A stretch of 64,000 bases of DNA from Escherichia phage VpaE1_ev78. The DNA is taken from sequence record LR597663; one strand, given 5' to 3'. Below, in pieces: positions 38,723 to 63,940 of the stretch; position 1 is the first letter of the stretch, and each line of letters opens with the position of its first letter. The notes under the pieces are model-generated. The model searched no databases and was not told the DNA's origin. It saw nothing but the letters and a program-made list of their open reading frames with translations. Made by a program: the position numbers and the translations under genes.

Positions 38723-39250
38723 TCAACTTAGTTTTGCAAACTCTCCGTGGAGTTTAGTAGCAGCTTCACAGTAAGCTTTATGGGCTTCTTCAGGTGTGTC
38801 ATAGTATCCTAATGACATCTTTTTACCTTTATAGCTTATTTGCGCAACCCACCTACCAGACTTCTTCTTCAGGCTTACACCCTTATAGCCTGATTTATTG
38901 GTGGATAGTTTGCTTTTATTCCAAGCACTTTGGTAGTCATCTGCTTCTCTTAAGTTTGCAATCCTGTTATCAAGGGAGTCCCCGTTAATATGGTCAATAA
39001 CACCTTTCGGTAACCTGCCATACACGTACAGCCATGCGAGTCTGTGCGCTTTATGTGCTTTCTTGTCAAAATAGATAGTAATCTGCTTATGACCAGTTGA
39101 GTCAATCTGAATGCTCCCCGCTACCTGTCCTGCGTGCTGACTATTAAAAACTTTAACAGCCTTTGAGTCACCCTCTCTACGAAGCCAAGTAAAGACCCCT
39201 GTTTCGGGGTCATAGTGTAGTAGTTCCTTTAAACGTTCTTGTGTAATCAT
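38723..39250 (-). CDS. HNH homing endonuclease with AP2 DNA-binding domain
   Basis: HNH-like GVIDHINGDSLDNRIANL followed by AP2-like GYKGVS...GRWVAQISYKGKKMSLGYYDTPEEAHKAY. Confidence 0.75.
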   Translation of the reverse strand: MITQERLKELLHYDPETGVFTWLRREGDSKAVKVFNSQHAGQVAGSIQIDSTGHKQITIYFDKKAHKAHRLAWLYVYGRLPKGVIDHINGDSLDNRIANLREADDYQSAWNKSKLSTNKSGYKGVSLKKKSGRWVAQISYKGKKMSLGYYDTPEEAHKAYCEAATKLHGEFAKLS

Positions 39251-39260
39251 TTTGTCACCA

Positions 39261-41960
39261 TTAATGCACTTCCAACCACGATTTACCAACCTTACCAGTA
39301 CCAGTTACCAGTGTTTCACTCTTTAGTCCTAAGTTCTTAGAGGCTTGCCCGTAATACCAATCAGTGACAGCTTTCACCTCTGCCGTCATACTTTCTGGGC
39401 ATTCCCAACTCGTCTCGTCGTGATAGGAGCACAATAAACGAGCACCTATAGCTGGTTTGCGACCGTTCAACTTCATCAAACCTTCGTCAATCATACGACG
39501 GCAAGCAAGGTTAATTGCCTCGTTCTGAATCTGACTTTCCGAACCCATGAGCAAATAATTCAATAGCTTATGCGGAGATTTACACCACAACCAAGCTCCA
39601 GCAACCTTTACAAAACCCCCTTTAGAGATTGCAGCAGTCTTACCAAACACCTCTTCAAGTGCCTTTTTAGTTGCTTTGTAGTCAGCTTCCAAGTCATCTA
39701 GTAGCTTCTTAATTTTAGGCAAACGAATAAAGTAAGTTTGTTTAGTCAGTGCACCTTCCTGAGTAGTTGCAGCTTTAATCGTCTTAGCAAACTTCTCATC
39801 CCCTGCACCGAACAGCAGTGCATAGATACCATTCTTAGCTTTCTTACGGCCTTTGCTAATCTCATGAAGAAGGTTCTCATCCTGAGTAGCTCGACAAGTC
39901 AAGATGTCCTGCTCATCATTCAAGCTAAAGTAAATACTGTTCAGTGTATGTGCATCAGTCCCTGAATAGACAACGTACAGGTCATTCTCAGAGTCATAGC
40001 GAAGGTACTTATCAATCTCTGGGTTGAGGTACTCATCAAAATGTTTGCAGTAATAGCGTCCATCTTCTTGACGAATGAACTCAATCTCTTCTTTACCTTG
40101 CGTTACCGCTTTGGTGAAGTCTTTATCGCCCATAAAGTTACAAAGAAGAACTAGCTGGGCTGAGTTCATATCTACAGAGACAACGTTAGTACCTTCCTCA
40201 CAAATCCACACTGCCCTCATTGGTTCTCCATAGACAGCAGCACCAGACGGTACGTTTACAATACCATACTGTGTCATACGTCCAGTTGAAGTACCAAACA
40301 CCATTGCACCAGCACTAAGGCGACCATCAGGACGAATCTGGTTCAACCAACCTTTTTCATCATCCTTTGAGTTCTCAATAGTTCTGCGTCTGTGCATCAA
40401 AGTATAGTACTTAGCAATCTTCTGTCCAAGCTCACCTTCAATCGTATCATAAGATGATTCCGTAAGTTTTGGTGAAGTACGGATTAAGCAAGGTTCAAGC
40501 AAATCTGTGTACTTCTTCACAGACCAGTTATGCTCGATGTACTGGACGCCTTCATGCTCGACATAACTCAAACCACACCGTTCAACCATCTCCTGCCACT
40601 TAGGATGCTTTGTAATCATCTTTTTGTTGTCTTTGAAACGACAAACTTTGACAGGGCGACCATCTGAGTCTTTCTTGTAGTTCCAGTCATCTGGAATCCA
40701 ACCAACTGATTTCAAGTAGTCTTTAACAACTGCTACCTGAGTCATACGAGAAACTTCAAACTCAATTGGTGTATATGGTGCATCAATCAATCCTGTGTAG
40801 CGACTTGAATCCAGTTCAAAGTGGTTAACAACATGGCTGTTATAGTACTTCACAGTCTTAACTGTCTTCACTGGCTTCCAGTCTTTGCATTTCTTACCAA
40901 TCTTTGCATTCAACTCGTTGCAAATTGCACGAGCATCCTTCATTGCTACAAAACCTTCCTTGTACTCTTCACCAGTTACAGAGTTGGTTGGTGTATAGCA
41001 ATTTCTCTTTTCAATGTTAAAAATCTTTGTAGTTGGCTTACCAAATGGCTTGATTTCATATGTCTGCATCTCACCGTTACGTACCTGCTGACGGTACTTC
41101 GTCTTAGGGTACTTGGTAATTCTCTTCAGTCCATCTGCATGACCGAACGCTTCAACATACTCATTCCAAGCTTTTGCAAACTCTTCTCCAGTAACTTTAC
41201 CTTTAGTCTTAATAGTTGGAGGAAGATGTGGTTCAACTTCTGAAGCAAGCTCATTAGTCAACTTGTCAAGTTCCTTCACATGGAACTCCATAAGCTCTTT
41301 ATCAGCTTTCCAACCATTGATAGCTTGTTGACTCATCCAGAAAGATGTTTCTTTAGCTCGCATATAGGTTTCATAAGTGTCTATACCACACTTCTTTAAC
41401 TTCAGGTATTCATTATCCAGTGCACGTTTAGTTTTGGCGTTAATACGGATATCTTCTACAACACGAGTGAAGATTTCTGCATTCCACACACCCCAATGTT
41501 CAATCTCTGGTTTACGTACACCAACACGAGCACCCCATGCTGCCAAGCCATGAGCACCTTTATAGCCTTTTGGAGTTGGTCTATCCATCCACTGAACACG
41601 AGATTGGATAAGAGAATCCTGAAAGAAATTACTCCACGGCTTACACTTTGGATTATCAAAGTTCCATAAATCAGGTGCAATGTGATTGAAAACCCACCAG
41701 TCATAACCCAGACCATTATGGATGCAAAGTCGTTTCGCCTTTAATGCAAACTCAATACCTTCACGCAAACCACCCTTAATGTACTTGGTGTACTTGTGAC
41801 CGAGGATAGGCTCATCTGTAAAAACCCATACAGGTGGCTCTTCATCATCAGATTTATAGTCTGCGAAAGCCATTACGTGCACTTTAGTGAACTCAAGGAG
41901 TAAACCATCAGTTTCTGTATCACCAACTAAATGTAAGTTTTTAAAATCTACGTTTTCCAT
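39261..41960 (-). CDS. family A DNA polymerase with 3-5 exonuclease domain
   Basis: Exo I motif GDTETDG, motif B-like KNGIYALLFGAG, motif C CSYHDE; start trimmed to ATG after GAGGGAG RBS. Confidence 0.85.
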   Translation of the reverse strand: MENVDFKNLHLVGDTETDGLLLEFTKVHVMAFADYKSDDEEPPVWVFTDEPILGHKYTKYIKGGLREGIEFALKAKRLCIHNGLGYDWWVFNHIAPDLWNFDNPKCKPWSNFFQDSLIQSRVQWMDRPTPKGYKGAHGLAAWGARVGVRKPEIEHWGVWNAEIFTRVVEDIRINAKTKRALDNEYLKLKKCGIDTYETYMRAKETSFWMSQQAINGWKADKELMEFHVKELDKLTNELASEVEPHLPPTIKTKGKVTGEEFAKAWNEYVEAFGHADGLKRITKYPKTKYRQQVRNGEMQTYEIKPFGKPTTKIFNIEKRNCYTPTNSVTGEEYKEGFVAMKDARAICNELNAKIGKKCKDWKPVKTVKTVKYYNSHVVNHFELDSSRYTGLIDAPYTPIEFEVSRMTQVAVVKDYLKSVGWIPDDWNYKKDSDGRPVKVCRFKDNKKMITKHPKWQEMVERCGLSYVEHEGVQYIEHNWSVKKYTDLLEPCLIRTSPKLTESSYDTIEGELGQKIAKYYTLMHRRRTIENSKDDEKGWLNQIRPDGRLSAGAMVFGTSTGRMTQYGIVNVPSGAAVYGEPMRAVWICEEGTNVVSVDMNSAQLVLLCNFMGDKDFTKAVTQGKEEIEFIRQEDGRYYCKHFDEYLNPEIDKYLRYDSENDLYVVYSGTDAHTLNSIYFSLNDEQDILTCRATQDENLLHEISKGRKKAKNGIYALLFGAGDEKFAKTIKAATTQEGALTKQTYFIRLPKIKKLLDDLEADYKATKKALEEVFGKTAAISKGGFVKVAGAWLWCKSPHKLLNYLLMGSESQIQNEAINLACRRMIDEGLMKLNGRKPAIGARLLCSYHDETSWECPESMTAEVKAVTDWYYGQASKNLGLKSETLVTGTGKVGKSWLEVH

Positions 41961-47840: not shown

Positions 47841-48881
47841 ATGGAGAAGTACACATTAACAAAACTTCCCGATTCAGTTACACATGTTTTTATTGACTCT
47901 GACAGCATTGCCTATAAAGGTGCTTGTGTAGTTGAGAAAGCAAAATATAAATACGTCAATAAACTCACAGCAGAAGAATCTGAACCATTTGACAATGCGA
48001 AAGATGCTGCAAGATGGTTAGCAGACCAGAGAATCCTTGTGGAAGAACTTGGCCTGACATTTGATGAAGATGAATGGGAAAGACAGACTTGGAAAGAAGC
48101 TAAGAGTGAAAAAGAAGCTATCATGGCTACTCAACAGGTGCTTCAGGAATGGCTTAAGATTGTTGGTAAAGAAAGAACTTGGGTAGGTTATTTAACAGAG
48201 AAAGGTGTGCATAAACATAAAGACATTAAAGGTCTTGAGCACCAATATCAAGGTAACCGTAAAGATGCTGTCACACCAACACACTTAGTCGCTTGTCGTG
48301 AATACCTTCTGTCAAGACCAGAGTTCAAACTCTTAAAGGGAGGATTCGAAGCCGATTCAATCGTAATTGCTAAAGCTGAAAAGATGGGTAAGAAAGCTGC
48401 TCTTATGAGTATTGACAAAGACCTTCGACAAGCTGAAGGAACTTATTGTATTGATATGACTTATGAAAAATCACCACTAATTTTTATTGCTGATAATAAT
48501 GTTGGTGATATCTGGGATTGTCCTATCAAATCAAAACCAAAAGCTGCAAAAACAGTTGGTGTAGGTTTTAAATTCTTGTGTTATCAGGCTGTTGCTGGAG
48601 ACAATGCAGACAACTACTTCGGCCTAAAAGGGGCTGGTAAAGTAGCTGTGATGAATGCTTTAGATGGTAAAGAGACCTACAAAGAGTGTCTTGATGCTAT
48701 CTATGAACTTTATGCTAAAAAAGACTCTTATACCTATGTGTCATGGGATGGACAGACTGTTACCAAAACACCATTAGAGTTAATGGAACAGCATTTCTGG
48801 ATAGCGTATCAAGAGAGAAATCCAAAAGATAATTTCTCTTTTAAGAAATATAATTGGGAGCCGTGTATGAATGAAGATTAA
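47841..48881 (+). CDS. 5-3 exonuclease / flap endonuclease (T4 RNase H-like)
   Basis: N-terminal acidic cluster HVFIDSDSIAY and H3TH-like AGDNADNYFGLKGAG. Confidence 0.65.
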   Translation: MEKYTLTKLPDSVTHVFIDSDSIAYKGACVVEKAKYKYVNKLTAEESEPFDNAKDAARWLADQRILVEELGLTFDEDEWERQTWKEAKSEKEAIMATQQVLQEWLKIVGKERTWVGYLTEKGVHKHKDIKGLEHQYQGNRKDAVTPTHLVACREYLLSRPEFKLLKGGFEADSIVIAKAEKMGKKAALMSIDKDLRQAEGTYCIDMTYEKSPLIFIADNNVGDIWDCPIKSKPKAAKTVGVGFKFLCYQAVAGDNADNYFGLKGAGKVAVMNALDGKETYKECLDAIYELYAKKDSYTYVSWDGQTVTKTPLELMEQHFWIAYQERNPKDNFSFKKYNWEPCMNED

Positions 48882-49368
48882 AGGATTTGGCAATTGCCCT
48901 ACCTATGGTCATTGGGTATCTTTATGTGGGGAAGTTGACCCCACTAAACATTTTGGCTTTGTCTATTTAGTACACTGTAAGAAGACTGGACAATATTATA
49001 TTGGAAAGAAACAGCTTAACAGTGTGACCAAAAGAAAAGTTGCTGGGAAGACTCGGAAGAAGGTAGTCACTAAGGAAAGTGATTGGATGACTTACGAAAC
49101 CTCTTCTGAGTATATTAAAAAAGATATTGAGAGCTTTGGAAAAGAATTTTTTGACTTTTACATTATTCAGACCTACTACACAAAAGGTGGCCTAGTCTAT
49201 GGTGAAGCAAACCTTCAACATAAATTCGATGTAATGACAAAAAGGATTGACTCGAAGCTCAGACTCTTCTACAATGCCAATATTGCAGCAATTAAGTTTA
49301 TTACTAAAGAAACTTATGAAGATGCTGAAAAAAGAATCCATAAGGTAATGAAAGCAAATTGTGCTTGA
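48871..49368 (+). CDS. hypothetical protein, possible GIY-YIG-like nuclease
   Basis: Weak motif FVYLVHCKKTGQYYIGKK; low confidence. Confidence 0.3.
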   Translation: MKIKGFGNCPTYGHWVSLCGEVDPTKHFGFVYLVHCKKTGQYYIGKKQLNSVTKRKVAGKTRKKVVTKESDWMTYETSSEYIKKDIESFGKEFFDFYIIQTYYTKGGLVYGEANLQHKFDVMTKRIDSKLRLFYNANIAAIKFITKETYEDAEKRIHKVMKANCA

Positions 49369-49389: not shown

Positions 49390-49620
49390 ATGTTTAACAA
49401 AAGCAAAGCTGTGAGTCATGTAGCAAAAGTTGACAGCAAGATTGAAGAACTTGAGCGCATCCTTGCAAATGCTAGAGAGTCAATAATCAAAGAAGTTGAA
49501 GCTGTTGAATCTCAAATGCAGCACCTAATGCTTAAACGTCAAGAGCTACGTGAGCATCTAGAATATATTGAAACACGAGAGCTAAAAGTTAACAGATTTT
49601 TAAGGAGTCCAAATGTTTAA
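49390..49620 (+). CDS. hypothetical coiled-coil protein (76 aa)
   Basis: Trimmed to ATG after GAGAGAG RBS. Confidence 0.4.
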   Translation: MFNKSKAVSHVAKVDSKIEELERILANARESIIKEVEAVESQMQHLMLKRQELREHLEYIETRELKVNRFLRSPNV

Positions 49621-50368
49621 CTCAAGAGAAGCAGTAAAAAACTGGAATCTTCGTTGTGGAAACACTCAAAAGCAACCTTACAGTGATGAGTATTGGGAAT
49701 CTTTAAAATCCCAGTCTCTGTGTATGCTGGAAGAAGCAAAAGAGCTTGTAAAAGCAATTGAAGAGAAAGACCCCATTGAGACACTGGATGCTCAGGCAGA
49801 TTTGCAATATGTTCTTGACGGTTTGATTTACCTGTCACAACATGACCATAACGGTGCTATGAAAGCTGTTTGCCGTAATAATGACCTGAAGTACACAGAT
49901 GACTATGAAGAAGCTTTAAAACGTCTTGCAGATATTGAGAAGCGTACTGGTCAAGAGTGTATTATCAGAATGTCAGTAGTTGATGGTAAAGAGTGGTATG
50001 CCATTGTTCGTGCAGCAGATGGGAAGATTATGAAGCAATCGAATCTCCCTAAAGTACAGCTTGGTGAATACATTGTAGAACTTGAAAGCCAAGAACTTTT
50101 TGTGGTAGTATCTGAGACATGCGTTATCTGCAAAGGTATTGTAGGTAGCTTAAAGGATTTGGGTGTAGATGGTTTTGTAGAAGTTAATCCAATTACCTCT
50201 AAAGCAGATAAAGACTTCTGTAAAGAGAATGGACTATGGATTGCAGATATTGTCTATTATGATGGTGAGCAGTTCCATGTAACCTCATACCCGAAACTGA
50301 ATTATGATGCTAATAACCTGAAGTGCTGGTTAAAAGGGGTTGGTTATAATGGATTCACAGAACATTAA
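49613..50368 (+). CDS. MazG-like nucleotide pyrophosphohydrolase domain fused to unknown C-terminal domain (putative)
   Basis: N-terminal helical region with EE..E....EE.D and LDAQADL acidic pattern; inference only. Confidence 0.35.
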   Translation: MFNSREAVKNWNLRCGNTQKQPYSDEYWESLKSQSLCMLEEAKELVKAIEEKDPIETLDAQADLQYVLDGLIYLSQHDHNGAMKAVCRNNDLKYTDDYEEALKRLADIEKRTGQECIIRMSVVDGKEWYAIVRAADGKIMKQSNLPKVQLGEYIVELESQELFVVVSETCVICKGIVGSLKDLGVDGFVEVNPITSKADKDFCKENGLWIADIVYYDGEQFHVTSYPKLNYDANNLKCWLKGVGYNGFTEH

Positions 50369-55156: not shown

Positions 55157-57301
55157 ATGAACAAAGTACAGATTATTAAAAAGAATGGCTCACTCGAAGA
55201 ACCTGATATCAAAAAAGTTTTAGCAGCAGTAGCTAAGTCAGCTAACAGGGTTGGATATAAAGAACTTCCACCAGATGTTACCCAAGCTCTTGAGTCAGCA
55301 TTCATGAGGATTTTGGTAAAGTCCACTAAGCAGAATAATTTGCTTATCTCGGTAAATGATATTCACAGTATTGTTGAAGGTGCTTTGGCAGAAGTTAATC
55401 ACGAGATTTATGAGTCTTACTCAACATACAGAAATTACCGTAAAGAGGTTGCTCAAAATTGGGATGAACTCTACCAGAAGACTAAAGATACACTCTTCTT
55501 AGGTGACCGTGAAAATGCTAACTTTGACAGCAGTTTAATTTCTACGAAAGGTTCAATTATCCGTGGTTACCTGACTAAAGAAATCTTTAAACAGTACCAT
55601 TTAACACCAGAGGAACTTGAAGCCATTGAAAAAGGATTTATCTATATCCATGATTTAAGAGACCTAATTTTTGGTGGTATCAACTGTTGCCTGTTTGACA
55701 TTGGTAAAGTCCTGAAAGGTGGCTTTGAAATGTCTGGCATCGAATATTGTGAACCAAAGTCTGTACTGTCGGCCTTACAGGTTATAGGTGACGTAGTTCT
55801 TTCAGCAACTGCACAGCAATTTGGTGGTTTTACTTTAGCAGAGATTGATAAGGTACTTGTGCCGTATGCTAAGAAGTCTCTACGCTATCATGCTGAGAAA
55901 GCAGCATCTTATGGTATTCCTAAAGAACATTACCACAATTATGTCATGGAGCAGCTACAGATTGAACTGACTCAAGGTTTCCAGTCACTTGAAATGAAAC
56001 TAAACACTGTACCTTGTAGCCGTGGGGATTTTGCATTCACAACTTTGACATTCGGGCTACTTGACTCAGATATGTCCAATGAAGATAACCGACTGCAATA
56101 TATGATTGCAAGTACTCTCCTAGATGTTCGTATGAATGGACAAGGTAAGAGCAAGAAACCTGTTGTATTCCCTAAACTGGTTTATATTTATGACCAGAAG
56201 AGACATAATGAGAATATCTGTCAAGGCCACCTGTACAGTAAAGCTATAGAGTGTTGCTCTAAAGCGATGTATCCAGATTTCTTAAGTGTATCTGGTCATG
56301 GTGCTGTAGCAGAGGCTTTTGAGCGTTCTGGCAAGGTTATTTCGCCGATGGGTTGCCGAGCGTTCTTATCTCCGTATCTTAACGAGAATGGGGAAGAGTT
56401 CTACGTTGGTCGTGCTAACATTGGTGCTGTATCTTTGAACTTACCAATGATTTACCAGTATTCTAAAGAGAATGGTTTAGATTTCTGGAAAGAGCTTGAT
56501 AAGTACCTAGAGATGATTCGCAGCTTCCACAAGAAACGCTACGAAATGATTGCTAATATGCCAGCAAGTTCTAACCCTCTTGCATTCACACAAGGTGGTC
56601 TGTACAAAGGGACTAAGAAACCTACTGACAAGGTTGGTTGGGATATCGTGAAGTCCTTCACAGCTTCTTTTGGGGTTACTGCTCTTGATGAACTGTCTGT
56701 TCTTGCTGAAGGTAAACGACTTCATGAAGTTGGAAGATATAGTTTTGCATACGATGTTCTGGAATACATCAACATGAAAACTGAAGAGTTTAAGAACGAA
56801 GATGGCTTCTTGTATGCGGTATATGGCACTCCAGCAGAATCACTTTGTGGAACTCAGTTAAAACAGTTCAGAGATATGTTTGGCGTTATTAAAGGTGTCT
56901 CTGACAAGGAATACTTTACAAACAGTTTCCATATGAATGTTGCAGCAGACATCTCACCATTTGAGAAGCAGGACTTAGAAGAGCCATTCTTCCATATCTG
57001 TAGAGGTGGCAGAATCCAGTATGTAAGGGTAGCTAACCCAGAAAACTTAACAGCACTTAAAAGTTGTATTACCAGAGGGATGTTGAAGGGTTTTTATCAG
57101 GGACTTAACTTTGACTTAGCAATCTGTGAACATTGTGGTAACAGACCAAAGGCTGATGTTGAAGAATGTGAGGTTTGCCATTCACATGATATCTCTGTGA
57201 TTAACAGGGTGTGCGGGTATCTTGGGTGGACCAAGATTAAAGGTGAATCCCGAATGAACGATGCAAAAATCGCTGAGATTCGTGATAGAGTCTCTATGTA
57301 A
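55157..57301 (+). CDS. nrdD: anaerobic ribonucleotide reductase (class III)
   Basis: C-terminal zinc cluster CEHCG...CEVCH and glycyl-radical motif RVCGY. Confidence 0.85.
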   Translation: MNKVQIIKKNGSLEEPDIKKVLAAVAKSANRVGYKELPPDVTQALESAFMRILVKSTKQNNLLISVNDIHSIVEGALAEVNHEIYESYSTYRNYRKEVAQNWDELYQKTKDTLFLGDRENANFDSSLISTKGSIIRGYLTKEIFKQYHLTPEELEAIEKGFIYIHDLRDLIFGGINCCLFDIGKVLKGGFEMSGIEYCEPKSVLSALQVIGDVVLSATAQQFGGFTLAEIDKVLVPYAKKSLRYHAEKAASYGIPKEHYHNYVMEQLQIELTQGFQSLEMKLNTVPCSRGDFAFTTLTFGLLDSDMSNEDNRLQYMIASTLLDVRMNGQGKSKKPVVFPKLVYIYDQKRHNENICQGHLYSKAIECCSKAMYPDFLSVSGHGAVAEAFERSGKVISPMGCRAFLSPYLNENGEEFYVGRANIGAVSLNLPMIYQYSKENGLDFWKELDKYLEMIRSFHKKRYEMIANMPASSNPLAFTQGGLYKGTKKPTDKVGWDIVKSFTASFGVTALDELSVLAEGKRLHEVGRYSFAYDVLEYINMKTEEFKNEDGFLYAVYGTPAESLCGTQLKQFRDMFGVIKGVSDKEYFTNSFHMNVAADISPFEKQDLEEPFFHICRGGRIQYVRVANPENLTALKSCITRGMLKGFYQGLNFDLAICEHCGNRPKADVEECEVCHSHDISVINRVCGYLGWTKIKGESRMNDAKIAEIRDRVSM

Positions 57302-59204: not shown

Positions 59205-59525
59205 ATGAGCAAAGTTTATAACACTCGTAAATTACAGATTTTCGTACTGTGCCAGTTTATGGCTAAAGAATACAACTTCTACTATTGTGGTACAGGTTTT
59301 ATTAGCGATGATGATGGCTCATACCTCCCATTCAAAGAGGCTGTAAAACTCTTCAATGAAGAGAAAAGTTCTAAGAAAGATATTGAAAAGGTTAAGCTAA
59401 CCTACAGCAAGAAAGATAAGAAGATTATCTGCCTAGATAACTTTGTGAAAGTTACTGGAGAAGCAAAAGAGTTTATGGATGAGAGTGAGATTTCATTCAC
59501 AAGCATCTTGAAAGTAGCTCAGTAA
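59205..59525 (+). CDS. hypothetical protein (106 aa)
   Basis: Coupled ORF followed by terminator. Confidence 0.45.
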   Translation: MSKVYNTRKLQIFVLCQFMAKEYNFYYCGTGFISDDDGSYLPFKEAVKLFNEEKSSKKDIEKVKLTYSKKDKKIICLDNFVKVTGEAKEFMDESEISFTSILKVAQ

Positions 59526-59536
59526 ACAGATACTAT

Positions 59537-59563
59537 AAGGGGACTGTAAAGGTTCCCTTTTTA
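59537..59563 (+). terminator. intrinsic terminator (AAGGG...CCCTT plus TTTTT)
   Basis: Hairpin and T-run. Confidence 0.55.
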
Positions 59564-59576
59564 TTTTGGAGGTAAA

Positions 59577-60362
59577 ATGTATCTGTCAAACCTGAAACGT
59601 TCGGTTGCAATGTCAGTTCTAAGACTCAGCTTTGATGAGCGTCAAGAGTTTATAGACTCCCACAAATATGACCCTTCAAATTCTAATCACATGGTTCTTT
59701 GGAATCGTGATAACTTCCGTGAAAGAGCACTTGTCCGTTATTACCCACACTACACAATAGATAACCTGTATGAATGGTGTGTTGTGAAGAACACCATTGC
59801 AACACTGAACAATCTTTGCAGGTATACGGGTAAGCAAACATTTACATTAGGTCATCACAAACCTGTTACAAAAGGTGGTGAACATCACTGTGCAAACTGG
59901 TTTATCCAAACTAAAGCTGATAACCAGAAGCAAGGAGATAGCCTCCTAAGTATCCCTAAGATGACCTATGAAGAGCAAGAGAAATATATCAAAAATAATA
60001 TGCCAGATGTGCTTGACAACAACTATACAGATTTGGCAATATCTCTCCTGTTGAAGTTCGAGACAGTTTATAGGCAACTTATAATGGTTAAAGAAAAGTG
60101 GGAGATTTTACCATTAGTCAGTGAAGGAGGTAATGGTTGTGAAATGTACATGATACGTGGTCATGTTCCAGAGCCAATTGCACTTGAGATGGTAAACAAC
60201 TTTACAGATGGTTCTTACAAAGACTTAGGCGAACCAACTGTCAAGCAACAATGGGTTAAACCTGTACCAGACAGCACAGGTAACTGTAGTGTACTTTATC
60301 ACGTTGTAGACCCTGCAAAATGCAAATCTGCAATGGCAGTAACAAACGTAACTTTTGATTGA
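59577..60362 (+). CDS. hypothetical protein with HNH-like nuclease motif (261 aa)
   Basis: Segment LGHHKPVTKGGEHHCANWFIQTKADNQKQGD resembles HNH core. Confidence 0.45.
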   Translation: MYLSNLKRSVAMSVLRLSFDERQEFIDSHKYDPSNSNHMVLWNRDNFRERALVRYYPHYTIDNLYEWCVVKNTIATLNNLCRYTGKQTFTLGHHKPVTKGGEHHCANWFIQTKADNQKQGDSLLSIPKMTYEEQEKYIKNNMPDVLDNNYTDLAISLLLKFETVYRQLIMVKEKWEILPLVSEGGNGCEMYMIRGHVPEPIALEMVNNFTDGSYKDLGEPTVKQQWVKPVPDSTGNCSVLYHVVDPAKCKSAMAVTNVTFD

Positions 60363-60373
60363 GAGAGAAAACT

Positions 60374-61255
60374 ATGAAAACATCTATCCGTGTTACAGTT
60401 CATTCACCAACTAAAGGAACTCATGAAGAAGAGTTTAACATCATCCAATTTCCTTCTGGTGAGATTGGTGGACACTTTTCGCCAGAGTTTGTTGATTTCA
60501 CTGCTTATGCAGCATCATCCATCAACAATGTGATTATGATTGTAAAAGGTTATGATAAGGACACTTTGTTTGCTGTGGCACTTGCTAAAGAAGCAATTGA
60601 TGATTTAATTCCTCATGATTATGCTTTAAAGACTGTCATCTTTTACTACTTACCAAATGCACGTTATGACCGTCACATGTTTAAAGGCGACGCAGCAGCT
60701 TTAAAGGTTTTTGCTAAACAGGTAAATGCAATGGGATTTGGTGCAGTCTGTGCAGTTGACCCTCACAGTTACGTTCCAGATAACCTGTTTAACTGCTTCC
60801 AGAGTATTCCTCAAAAGGAGATTGCAGTCCACTATGCAAATGACCCACTGGTTGATTACTTAGTAGCCCCAGATGCAGGTGCTGCTAAGAAGGTTGCAGA
60901 GACTGCTAAAGAGGTGGATAAACCATACATCACAATGTCTAAAGTGCGTAACCTTAAGACTGGTGAAATTACTGGTATGCGAATCCTTGATGATGTTGAT
61001 TTGACAGATAAAACCGTCATGATTCTTGATGATATCTGTGATGGTGGTCGAACCTTCATAGAAGCAGCGAAACATCTTCGTGAAGCAGGTGCAAAACGTG
61101 TGGAACTCTATGTGACTCATGGTATCTTCTCTAAAGGCGTTGAAAACCTTCTTGACAATGGCATTGACCACATCTACACTACAAACTCTTTAGGGGAAGC
61201 TAAAGACCGTGGCTTAACACATTATGGTCAAGTTACTGTAGTAACCATTGATTAG
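60374..61255 (+). CDS. prs: ribose-phosphate pyrophosphokinase (PRPP synthetase)
   Basis: PRPP-binding motif VMILDDICDGGRT; start trimmed to ATG after GAGAGAGA RBS. Confidence 0.8.
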   Translation: MKTSIRVTVHSPTKGTHEEEFNIIQFPSGEIGGHFSPEFVDFTAYAASSINNVIMIVKGYDKDTLFAVALAKEAIDDLIPHDYALKTVIFYYLPNARYDRHMFKGDAAALKVFAKQVNAMGFGAVCAVDPHSYVPDNLFNCFQSIPQKEIAVHYANDPLVDYLVAPDAGAAKKVAETAKEVDKPYITMSKVRNLKTGEITGMRILDDVDLTDKTVMILDDICDGGRTFIEAAKHLREAGAKRVELYVTHGIFSKGVENLLDNGIDHIYTTNSLGEAKDRGLTHYGQVTVVTID

Positions 61256-61263
61256 GTAACAGT

Positions 61264-61755
61264 ATGAATAAGGGTTATTTTGAAAAATACCTAGTATATG
61301 AACCAGATACAGGTTTATTAATTTGGAGAGTAACCCTTTGCAGTACCGCTATTGCTGGTAATGTGGCTGGCACAAGGTCTAAGAAGGGTTATATCCAAGT
61401 CCAGATAAATAAGAAGAGGTACTATGCACATAATATTGCATGGATTATGTCTGGAGGTGAGATACCAAGTGGATATGAGATAGACCACATAGACCTTGAT
61501 AAAACTAATAATAAGTTGGAGAATTTAAGACTTAGCACAAAGTCACAAAATCAGAGGAATAGAGGTATACACAAGAATAATAAAACTGGTGTGAAGGGTG
61601 TAAGTTTTTGTAAACAAACAGGTCTTTACAAAGCAAGAGTCATGCTTTACTATAAAGAATACTTTTGTGGAAGATTTAAAACGGTAGAAGAAGCAAAAGA
61701 AGCTGTAATTAAAAAGCGAATAGAACTTCATGGTGAGTTTGCAAGACATAACTAA
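61264..61755 (+). CDS. HNH homing endonuclease with AP2 domain
   Basis: HNH-like YEIDHIDLDKTNNKLENLR followed by AP2-like GVKGVSF...GLYKARV; paralogue of 38723..39250. Confidence 0.75.
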   Translation: MNKGYFEKYLVYEPDTGLLIWRVTLCSTAIAGNVAGTRSKKGYIQVQINKKRYYAHNIAWIMSGGEIPSGYEIDHIDLDKTNNKLENLRLSTKSQNQRNRGIHKNNKTGVKGVSFCKQTGLYKARVMLYYKEYFCGRFKTVEEAKEAVIKKRIELHGEFARHN

Positions 61756-61769
61756 GAGAGAGATAAAAT

Positions 61770-63551
61770 ATGAGTAAGTCACTTTACGCAGTACCGGCAG
61801 GTCTTAATGCAGATGCTTACAAGGCATCACATATATATCAGTATCCAGATGCTACACAGTATCTTATGCTAAACCTGACACCACGTAGTGACAAATGGTT
61901 TAACAGCCCCTTAGCAATTGATGGTGTAGTAGCTTTTGGTATTCAACGTTTTGTTAAAGATTACTTGATAGACCACTGGAATGCCACCTTCTTTGAACGT
62001 GACAAAAAAGAAGCAATTGATGAAATCTTAGAAGTCATGAACGGTGTTCTGGGTAAAGATGCTATTGGTCGAGAACATTGGGAAGCACTTCACGACTTAG
62101 GTTATCTACCAGTTGAAGTATACGCTGTAGAAGAGGGTACAGTTGTCCCTATGCGTGTTCCAATGATTGTATTCCAGAACACTGTTTCAGGTTTCCATTG
62201 GGTAGCAGGGTATCTAGAAGATGCTTTCTCTGCTGAGATTTGGAAGGCTTGTACCATTGCAACTATTGCATTGCACTACAAACGTATCTGTAAGAAGTGG
62301 GCTGACCTTACTTGTGACAATGCATTACATTTACCTTATCAGTGCCATGACTTTGCTATGCGTGGTATGTCTGGCTTTACCGATGACGCATTTAACGCTG
62401 TAGGCCACTTAACCAGCTTTAAAGGGACTGATAGCTTCCCTGCTGTATATACAGCTAAACGCATCTATGGACAGTCTTACCCAATCTCTGATATTGGTAG
62501 CTCTGTACCAGCCACTGAGCACTCTGTAATGTGTGCAAACATTGCTTGGGAAGGTGGTAATGAGTTGATTGAAGAAGAAAGACGCTTTAAAGGTGAGTTA
62601 CAAACCTTCCGTCGTTTCTTAACAGAAACTTACCCAACTGGTATTGCAAGTGTTGTTTCAGACACTTATAACTTCTGGAGAACTGTGTCAGAAATTTTAC
62701 CAGCACTTCGTAAAGAAATTATGGAACGTGATGGCAAACTGGTAATTCGTCCTGACTCTGGAGACCCTGTACATATTGTCACAGGTTATAAAGCAATCCA
62801 CTTAGAATGTGCTAAAAAGGCTTATTACGAACACTTAAGCAAGCTTGAAGCCAGCGACACAATGTTGAATGCTGTTCTGAACATGAAGCTTGAAAACATC
62901 AATTATGGTATTGCTGGATGGCTACTGTCAGAAGGCTACGAAATGGTTGTTGACAGAGAAGACTTTGAAGTTGCTGATACAGTGCTGTTGAAAAACGCTT
63001 ATATGGTTGGTTCTGCAAACGTTGTAACACGTCCTGTAGCTGAGATTGATGGAGCTATTAAGACACTGTACAACATCTTTGGGGGAACTATTAACTCTAA
63101 AGGGTTTAAGGTACTGGATGAGCATATCGGACTTATCTATGGTGACTCTATCACGCTGGAACGTGCAAACGAAATCCTGAAGCGTCTGTATGAAATGGGT
63201 TTTGCAAGCTCTAACGTAGTGTTTGGCGTAGGTTCTTACACTTACCAGTACATGACTCGTGACACCTTTGCATTTGCTGTCAAAGCAACTCTTGCAAGCA
63301 TTGGTGGTAAAGAGATTATGCTTGCAAAAGACCCTAAAACAGATAGTGGTGTTAAGAAATCTGCCTTTGGTGGTGTAGCACCTATGTGGGATGGTGACAA
63401 GCTGAAAGCTATAGATGGCTATGGATTCCAGAGTTTTGCAGATGTACTTGACCACCCAGCTTGTGCCTTACGTTTAGTCTTTAGTGACTCTGAGCAGTTC
63501 GGTTACACAACTCTTGGGGATATTCGAAATAATATTGACAAGCAGCTTTAA
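61770..63551 (+). CDS. nadV: nicotinamide phosphoribosyltransferase
   Basis: 593 aa; N-terminal Y(K/A)(A/V)SHI-type region and overall length match NAMPT; adjacent to prs. Confidence 0.8.
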   Translation: MSKSLYAVPAGLNADAYKASHIYQYPDATQYLMLNLTPRSDKWFNSPLAIDGVVAFGIQRFVKDYLIDHWNATFFERDKKEAIDEILEVMNGVLGKDAIGREHWEALHDLGYLPVEVYAVEEGTVVPMRVPMIVFQNTVSGFHWVAGYLEDAFSAEIWKACTIATIALHYKRICKKWADLTCDNALHLPYQCHDFAMRGMSGFTDDAFNAVGHLTSFKGTDSFPAVYTAKRIYGQSYPISDIGSSVPATEHSVMCANIAWEGGNELIEEERRFKGELQTFRRFLTETYPTGIASVVSDTYNFWRTVSEILPALRKEIMERDGKLVIRPDSGDPVHIVTGYKAIHLECAKKAYYEHLSKLEASDTMLNAVLNMKLENINYGIAGWLLSEGYEMVVDREDFEVADTVLLKNAYMVGSANVVTRPVAEIDGAIKTLYNIFGGTINSKGFKVLDEHIGLIYGDSITLERANEILKRLYEMGFASSNVVFGVGSYTYQYMTRDTFAFAVKATLASIGGKEIMLAKDPKTDSGVKKSAFGGVAPMWDGDKLKAIDGYGFQSFADVLDHPACALRLVFSDSEQFGYTTLGDIRNNIDKQL

Positions 63552-63566
63552 AAGTATATGATAAGA

Positions 63567-63587
63567 GGCTCCTACGGGAGCCTTTTT
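63567..63587 (+). terminator. intrinsic terminator (GGCTCC-TAC-GGGAGCC plus TTTTT)
   Basis: Hairpin and T-run after nadV. Confidence 0.7.
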
Positions 63588-63604: not shown

Positions 63605-63940
63605 ATGAAAATCAAAGAGATGAACATCAACATTGTCTTAGAAGAACGTTGGGAGAACATCAAGAAGCCTGAAGATGGTCATAAGTTCCTTAACAAAATC
63701 TTGGTAGCAGCTAAAGAAGAACTGACTGGCAAGATTGCAGCAGCAATCACAATAAAAGTCTGTGTAAAAGGTCTTCCAGACAACCACCAATTTGCGCTTG
63801 ACGAGTTTAAAGAAAGCTTCTACAATCCAAACAAACAGATGCTTGAAAGTAACTTTGCAGTGTCTACAAGTATCGTCCATGACAGAAGTTTTATCCTTTA
63901 CAAAAATATGAGAGGTGAGTCATGCAAGCATATTGGATAG
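63605..63940 (+). CDS. hypothetical protein (111 aa)
   Basis: ORF with RBS after terminator; no recognisable motif (no NMNAT signature). Confidence 0.5.
   Translation: MKIKEMNINIVLEERWENIKKPEDGHKFLNKILVAAKEELTGKIAAAITIKVCVKGLPDNHQFALDEFKESFYNPNKQMLESNFAVSTSIVHDRSFILYKNMRGESCKHIG

Follow-up and report, generated by a model that had tools for sequence, protein, structure and literature searches.

Positions 60374-63551 of a 64,000-nucleotide (nt) stretch of the Escherichia phage VpaE1_ev78 genome (LR597663), hereafter the window, hold three intact open reading frames (ORFs) on the + strand, namely a Prs-like, an HNH and a NAMPT-like gene, with spacers of 8 nt and 14 nt between them. We assign this locus, with a probability of about 0.92, to NARP1, as the anti-defence operon of a Felixounavirus whose intergenic spacer between adps and namat houses a selfish homing-endonuclease gene. 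The two genes are the already described NARP1 pair, and the arrangement split by an HNH gene has been visible in the record of Salmonella phage FelixO1 (AF320576) since its deposit. The original prediction had named the three gene families at these positions, which the ORFs and their profile matches confirm; its view that the pair rebuilds nicotinamide adenine dinucleotide (NAD+) against NAD+-depleting immunity agrees with the orthology of the pair to gp79-80 of phage Bas63. The three genes are as follows:

60374..61255, + strand: adps (Prs-like), 293 amino acids (aa); predicted ADP-ribose pyrophosphokinase of NARP1
61264..61755, + strand: ORF with HNH_3 and AP2-like matches, 163 aa; putative free-standing homing-endonuclease gene
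61770..63551, + strand: namat (NAMPT-like), 593 aa; predicted nicotinamide ADP-ribose transferase of NARP1

In the proposed mechanism, an NAD+-depleting defence system (SIR2-HerA/Nezha, type I Thoeris, DSR1/2 or similar) would cleave NAD+, releasing ADP-ribose (ADPR) together with nicotinamide, Adps would pyrophosphorylate ADP-ribose with ATP to give ADP-ribose pyrophosphate (ADPR-PP), and Namat would join ADPR-PP and nicotinamide to form NAD+ in one step. Nicotinamide mononucleotide (NMN) would not be an intermediate and, since NARP1 makes NAD+ directly, an NMNAT would be needed from neither the phage nor the host.

The adps-namat pair and its assignment to NARP1

NARP1 was discovered from genes 79-80 of Bas63 (Escherichia phage JohannRWettstein, Felixounavirus) (Osterman et al., bioRxiv 10.1101/2024.02.11.579819). 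Deletion of the operon sensitised Bas63 ~20-fold to SIR2-HerA and deepened NAD+ depletion, while wild-type Bas63 beat SIR2-HerA even in a host without pncC and nadR, and ADPR-PP accumulated in Bas63-infected cells. Purified SPbetaL1 Adps converted ADPR and ATP into ADPR-PP and gave no canonical Prs product, and purified SPbetaL1 Namat produced NAD+ from ADPR-PP and nicotinamide (10.1101/2024.02.11.579819).

The 4.5 kb around the locus in VpaE1_ev78 showed 95-97% nt identity to dozens of Felixounavirus genomes, LF110P4, VpaE1 and Mushroom among them, and the remaining window content was as expected for this genus (tRNA-region ORFs, a structural module, DNA polymerase and nrd genes). By these similarities, the window is placed in Felixounavirus. 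Synteny with Bas63 covers nrdG, the small ORFs, adps and namat, and the two phages agree in genus, genomic position, gene order, protein lengths (593 aa and 293 aa), clamp residues, inserts and ribosome-binding sites. Bas63 differs in that a hairpin-bearing spacer of 45 nt (GGGGCTTGAAAGCCCC, then a T-run) stands where the window has an HNH cassette of ~500 nt, and in that it carries the other 5' namat haplotype and the other 5' adps allele. From orthology and motif conservation, we infer that the locus performs the ADPR-PP/NAD+ chemistry and that the operon of this phage would play a counter-defence role.

The NAMPT-like ORF matched phrog_448 (E 1.8e-201) and the Pfam families NAPRTase (6.1e-35) and NAMPT_N (9.5e-6). 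Its product is identical to Bas63 gp80 at 578 of 593 positions (97%) in a gapless alignment, and 7 of the 15 differences fall within the first 34 residues, around the invariant D15, Y17 and H21. The best matches by sequence in the PDB were the SPbetaL1 Namat entries 9W5W and 9W5X (E 6.6e-129). An AlphaFold2 (AF2) model, computed from an alignment of 42 homologues with the SPbetaL1 sequence left out, reached a predicted local distance difference test score (pLDDT) of 93 and had 9w5x as its best Foldseek match, with a template-modelling score (TM) of 0.95, ahead of HdNadV and human NAMPT. When the catalytic set of SPbetaL1 Namat (D13, Y15, F189, R192, D215, the catalytic His, R306, D308, G360 and D361) was taken as the reference, the core was found conserved as D15, Y17, F195, R198, D221, H251, R327, D329, G458 and D459, together with T496, R497 and D498, and the residues contacting nicotinamide, ribose and phosphate were all conserved. 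A catalytically dead NadV homologue, which the original prediction had named as grounds for giving it up, was therefore not found, as every catalytic residue checked is present.

Namat and Nampt enzymes are told apart by an adenine 'selectivity clamp' made up of a helix motif (selectivity-clamp helix, SCH) and a loop (selectivity-clamp loop, SCL); the third SCL residue is Arg, Lys or Tyr, and with Lys or Tyr there, stacking on adenine falls to the fourth residue, Bas63 being an example of the Lys type (PMC12774641). The clamp segments and the two inserts of the window protein relative to SPbetaL1 Namat lie as follows:

61887..61898, + strand: SCL, S40-D41-K42-W43, identical in Bas63
62541..62585, + strand: 15-aa Namat insert, aa 258-272, relative to SPbetaL1 Namat
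62787..63050, + strand: ~77-aa Namat insert, aa ~340-427, a gap in alignments with SPbetaL1 Namat
63231..63263, + strand: SCH, G488-S-Y-T-Y-Q-Y-M-T-R-D498, motif match

The SCL of the window protein is of the Lys type, as in Bas63, and its SCH reads GSYTYQYMTRD (aa 488-498), against GSFTYQYNTRD in SPbetaL1. In the same alignment, the corresponding segment reads GAQTYQRNTRD in NadV of H. ducreyi (HdNadV, 9KE8) and GGALLQKVDRD in Xanthomonas (Xcc Nampt), true Nampt enzymes from which two aromatic residues of the SCH are absent. SPbetaL1 Namat (crystal structures 9W5W and 9W5X; NAR 2026, PMC12774641) and Adps resemble the window proteins in fold, catalytic core and the essential Adps Lys, and differ in overall identity (46% for Namat, 35% for Adps), in the residue on adenine, where Arg40 stacks in place of the K42-W43 of the window, and in lacking the ~15-aa and ~77-aa segments of the window Namat. 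Homologues of ~496 aa with the motif GS[YF]TYQYNTRD, 46-48% identical to the window protein, were also seen in chromosomes of Klebsiella, Cronobacter, Phytobacter, Kosakonia and Erwinia, in line with PMC12774641, which reports NARP1 homologues from bacteria.

The RPDSGDP and IYGDS active-site strands flank the ~77-aa insert, which forms a small alpha/beta subdomain with a pLDDT of ~94-96 in the full-length AF2 model, compared with 59.9 in a single-sequence AF2 model of the insert alone. It is conserved throughout an Ounavirinae-like Namat clade with proteins of ~590-610 aa, whose members fall as low as 46% identity (Yersinia, Pectobacterium and Salmonella SB18-type phages); in other Namat lineages this point is occupied by inserts unrelated to it. 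Scanned against Pfam by itself, the insert gave only a chance-level match to DUF4528 (E 0.031), structure searches with the whole Namat chain recovered only Nampt and Namat folds, and a word search of PMC12774641 found no mention of the insert. An intein or intron was considered and rejected, as the insert is in frame, spans ~77 aa only, shows protein-level conservation over a diverse clade and is folded into the enzyme. Possible roles of the insert include docking of Adps, substrate channelling, regulation and escape from a host counter-measure.

The Prs-like ORF matched phrog_619 (E 7.8e-97) and the Pfam families Pribosyltran (5.9e-12) and Pribosyl_synth (2.8e-9), and its product aligns without gaps to Bas63 gp79 with 232 of 293 residues identical (79%). 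The assayed SPbetaL1 Adps matched it at 99.8 bits in BLASTP, compared with 61.6 bits for E. coli Prs. The protein falls below every NCBIfam Prs equivalog cut-off and passes the broad TIGR01251 subfamily model barely, at 119.1 versus 113 bits. K190 (MSKVRN) aligns with the essential flexible-loop K162 (GHKQRN) of SPbetaL1 Adps, the counterpart in B. subtilis Prs being K197. No solved Adps structure was found in the PDB by sequence, where only canonical Prs entries matched (best 71.5 bits). The ORF is open from an in-frame TTG at 60359, which is the less likely start because the ATG at 60374 has a GAGAGAGA ribosome-binding site ahead of it and serves as the annotated start in relatives. Namat starts 515 nt downstream of adps with only the HNH cassette between them; among the genes of the Adps clade, 97% are accompanied by a Namat gene in the immediate vicinity.

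Judged by their Pfam and NCBIfam names, the two proteins would fit a canonical salvage route, which is how the original prediction had read them: a PRPP synthetase would supply 5-phosphoribosyl pyrophosphate (PRPP) to a NAMPT for NMN synthesis, and an NMNAT of the host or encoded by the phage out of sight (NadR, NadD or NatV-like) would complete the pathway, following a logic like that of NARP2. We regard this as highly improbable. The discoverers of NARP1 themselves first assumed this Pfam-based chemistry of PRPP and then NMN, and refuted it on the Bas63 orthologues, which function in a host without pncC and nadR (10.1101/2024.02.11.579819). The route also stands against the product of SPbetaL1 Adps, which is ADPR-PP and not that of a canonical Prs, against the adenine clamp of the window protein, which true Nampt enzymes lack, and against the published tree, in which Nampt-clade phage genes co-occur with Nmnat (94%) and Namat-clade genes with Adps (10.1101/2024.02.11.579819). 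Finally, an NMNAT or Nudix gene, the search for which the original prediction had proposed, was neither found in the scanned window ORFs nor annotated in the complete Bas63 genome: the neighbouring ORFs and 24 non-structural window ORFs gave no Pfam match to CTP_transf_like, Nudix, Macro or RyR (E <= 0.01), in a scan confined to the window, which holds all but ~23 kb of this phage, and the Bas63 annotation lists no Macro or RyR gene either. The ORF at 63605-63940 has no NMNAT signature, as had been noted before, and matches phrog_4262. An NMNAT completing the pathway from outside the window or from the host, as first supposed, has no place in the NARP1 chemistry to which the Namat clamp points. 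Both the PRPP/NMN reading and the search for an NMNAT go back to a mistaken annotation since put right in the literature (10.1101/2024.02.11.579819). As no Macro-domain Adpp is present, the locus would be plain NARP1 and not NARP1-AP.

The nearest analogue on the canonical side is NARP2, exemplified by the NadV-NatV pair of KVP40 (Nampt plus a bifunctional Nmnat-Nudix protein). Like the window pair, it has a phage enzyme of the Nampt fold that restores NAD+ against depleting defences; in contrast, it uses PRPP, proceeds via NMN and needs an Nmnat, whereas the window has an Adps partner, the adenine clamp in Namat and no Nmnat that we could find.

Adps and namat sit at the end of a nucleotide-metabolism module, with nrdA/B/D/G, thymidylate synthase and dNMP kinase genes as neighbours, and the Prs-like enzyme might on this account simply feed PRPP to nucleotide synthesis as a general booster with no role in immunity. 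Such a booster would leave unexplained both the strict pairing with Namat and the defence-specific phenotype of the Bas63 deletion, and Adps scores below the Prs equivalog thresholds; we give this explanation next to no weight.

Several points weigh against the NARP1 assignment. The in vitro biochemistry comes from SPbetaL1 homologues that are 35% (Adps) and 46% (Namat) identical to the window proteins. Namat keeps some PRPP-to-NMN activity in vitro (PMC12774641), so that a minor NMN route may exist as well. Over its N-terminal 180 residues, Adps shares just 68% identity with the Bas63 allele, the one validated genetically, compared with 97% over aa 181-293, and its putative placement in the Adps clade rests on scores and the 79% identity to Bas63 gp79.

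The HNH gene between adps and namat

The middle ORF matched HNH_3 over the full 46-position profile (E 2.7e-19) and phrog_99 (E 4.5e-68). Its AP2 match stayed under the Pfam cut-off (20.6 versus 33.3 bits) and reached 5.4e-4 with the C-terminal region alone; the AP2-like call is nevertheless supported because the ORF is homologous from end to end (E 5.5e-25) to a paralogue at 38723-39289 on the - strand, which abuts the DNA polymerase gene and has both HNH_3 and AP2 (AP2 E 1.9e-13). No relative of the protein was found in the PDB at E <= 0.01. The original prediction of an HNH-AP2 homing endonuclease splitting the pair is supported by the HNH_3 match, the AP2-bearing paralogue and a patchy presence at a single site. 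By all these features, the gene appears to be that of a free-standing homing endonuclease, not part of the NAD+ pathway.

Accessory genes in or beside adps-namat are documented, such as the Macro-domain phosphatase Adpp of Vibrio phage Gary (NARP1-AP) and the RyR-domain glycosidase RyDEP of mycobacteriophage DyoEdafos, and the middle gene could by analogy extend NARP1 by a third functional component. We hold this to be extremely unlikely: the ORF has HNH_3 and AP2-like matches and no Macro or RyR signal, its paralogue stands beside a DNA polymerase gene, ~3/4 of the operons that are nearly identical in other respects lack it, among them the one of Bas63, which was functional in experiment, and its surroundings bear the co-conversion signature typical of homing.

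The HNH gene occurs in 61-63 of ~248 namat-bearing phage records, always directly upstream of namat. In genomes without it (HNH-; Bas63, heid, Alf5, RPN213 and REP8), the adps stop is followed by a 30-nt element and then by the shared GAGAGAGA ribosome-binding site of namat. Within this element lie a GC hairpin of 6 bp and a T-run (-11.5 to -12.6 kcal/mol), and in genomes with the gene (HNH+) the cassette of ~500 nt (61256-61755) replaces exactly this 30-nt hairpin spacer. By removing the intercistronic hairpin, the cassette may change the Adps:Namat expression ratio.

Presence of the cassette is linked to the sequence directly downstream, at the start of namat:

61770..61872, + strand: 5' tract of namat, HNH-linked haplotype; putative co-conversion tract and immunity allele

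Two haplotypes of this tract, with ~22 differing positions per ~100 nt, separate HNH+ from HNH- genomes: haplotype A was found in every HNH+ genome examined and haplotype B in the classic HNH- genomes. Among 60 evenly spaced records of 247, all 16 with the HNH gene were at least 93% identical to the window tract, the gene was absent from all 37 records that fell short of 90%, and seven HNH- records lay at 90-94%. In two other genera, represented by Moogle (Mooglevirus) and phiSUSP1 (Suspvirus), the HNH gene and the tract are 87-98% identical to the window, compared with ~75% for the flanking adps and namat, and identity falls sharply from 95% to 75% at 61871. FelixO1 resembles the window in having an HNH gene between adps and namat (ORF301-ORF305-ORF308) and the HNH-linked 5' namat haplotype; it differs in that its HNH gene is ~90% identical in nt and its 5' adps allele is of the Bas63 type.

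The simplest reading of these population patterns is that the endonuclease would cut haplotype B of HNH- relatives near namat codons 12-34, and that the HNH gene would be copied in by repair along with ~100 nt of flanking namat as a co-conversion tract. Cleavage, target and homing are probably of this kind, as judged from sequence patterns only. They are tempered by the fact that the patterns were drawn from related, non-independent genomes, and by HNH- genomes with a mostly HNH-type haplotype, namely RPN213 (L014 1254-1431) and REP8 (L015 1256-1431), which keep the hairpin spacer and the first ~20 nt of haplotype B and have haplotype A from about nt 30 of namat. The latter two look like endonuclease-resistant or partially converted empty alleles.

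The free-standing Seg and Mob homing endonucleases of T-even phages occupy intergenic spacers, have a patchy distribution and are flanked by polymorphisms that fit co-conversion and self-immunity. An example of the literature on them is Edgell, Gibb and Belfort (2010), cited in PMC8300805. The HNH-AP2 gene of the window is like them in its intergenic site between conserved genes, its patchiness and its co-conversion-like flanks, features that here come from comparing sequences alone.

The 5' part of adps (60374-60915, ~540 nt, codons 1-180) is also dimorphic among Felixounaviruses. The window allele is 68% identical to that of Bas63 and FelixO1 over aa 1-180 and 97% over aa 181-293, and of the two alleles only the Bas63 type has been genetically validated. 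An association of this allele with the HNH gene was rejected: FelixO1 combines the HNH gene with the Bas63-type allele, and heid and Alf5 lack the gene but have the window-type allele.

The HNH cassette may also cause one 5' namat allele to sweep through populations of Felixounavirus, in which case a selfish element would be shaping an anti-defence gene. We think it rather unlikely, taking the two together, that the Namat insert adds a function absent from the SPbetaL1 enzyme and that the HNH cassette is more than a hitch-hiker.

Other homing-endonuclease-like genes were noticed elsewhere. One is a SegE-type GIY-YIG ORF at 48871-49368 (+) (E 9.4e-28). In addition, nrdD (55157-57301) is a single uninterrupted ORF of 714 aa in the window, whereas in Bas63 (L001 1-1771) it is annotated as two joined pieces with a putative homing-endonuclease ORF inside, a further presence/absence polymorphism of a mobile element.

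Transcription signals and neighbouring genes

Around the three genes, the following features were found:

59508-59536: weak promoter-like site, abutting the hairpin at 59537..59559
59537..59559, + strand: terminator-like hairpin at the upstream boundary (9-bp stem and T-run, -14.1 kcal/mol)
59577..60362, + strand: upstream ORF, 261 aa, a single ORF matching phrog_3500 and phrog_4726
63535-63562: strong promoter-like site for the next gene (11/12 matches), abutting the hairpin at 63563..63586
63563..63586, + strand: terminator-like hairpin at the 3' boundary, just past the namat stop (10-bp stem and T-run, -16.6 kcal/mol)
63605-63940: last ORF of the window, phrog_4262, function unknown

No hairpin was found between the three genes in 60374-63551. 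Since a hairpin follows namat and none stands between the genes, it is plausible that adps, the HNH gene and namat are terminated together; the joint termination claimed in the original prediction is thus backed by the position of the hairpins and is kept here as plausible only. At either end of the unit, a GC-rich hairpin with a T-run begins exactly where a match to a sigma-70-like promoter stops. Phage ASO1A is annotated likewise, with a rho-independent terminator at the place matching 59537..59559 and a promoter at the place matching 63535-63562. Such a hairpin could serve both as the terminator of upstream transcription and as the 5' end of the next transcript.

The upstream ORF (59577-60362) lies in the same transcription unit as adps and namat and is at most a candidate member of the pathway. 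In relatives, this region consists of two ORFs that overlap by 8 nt, one of 171 aa (phrog_3500, with a degenerate HNH-like motif) and one of 92 aa (phrog_4726), which remain unfused in each of the five relatives used for comparison (Bas63, heid, Alf5, pinkbiff and FelixO1). A 1-nt deletion (GGG to GG) in a G-run near 60072 (60065-60080) fuses them in the window, and could be either a homopolymer sequencing error or a real variant. In ESCO45 (OM386661.1; L006 4003-4214), a natural deletion has removed the two upstream small ORFs, adps and namat except for its last 168 nt, which makes this phage a ready-made NARP1-minus relative within Ounavirinae.

The nucleotide-metabolism module contains another nucleotide-modifying enzyme, encoded by a 251-aa ORF at 49613-50368 (+) with a MazG/PRA-PH-like nucleotide pyrophosphohydrolase domain (E 5.1e-6), which is not an NMNAT.

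Annotation and Felixounavirus biology

The main value of these results lies in annotation, and the current understanding of the pathway is unchanged. A phage pair of 'Prs plus NAMPT' with the motif GS-aromatic-x-aromatic-x-aromatic-x-TRD and no NMNAT should be annotated as NARP1 and not as an incomplete NMN salvage pathway. Because no Adpp phosphatase is present, VpaE1_ev78 is predicted to be vulnerable to aRES-type defences that produce ADPR-1''-phosphate. Felixounaviruses are widely used in phage therapy, and the operon would predict that this phage escapes SIR2-HerA/Nezha, type I Thoeris, DSR and similar defences.

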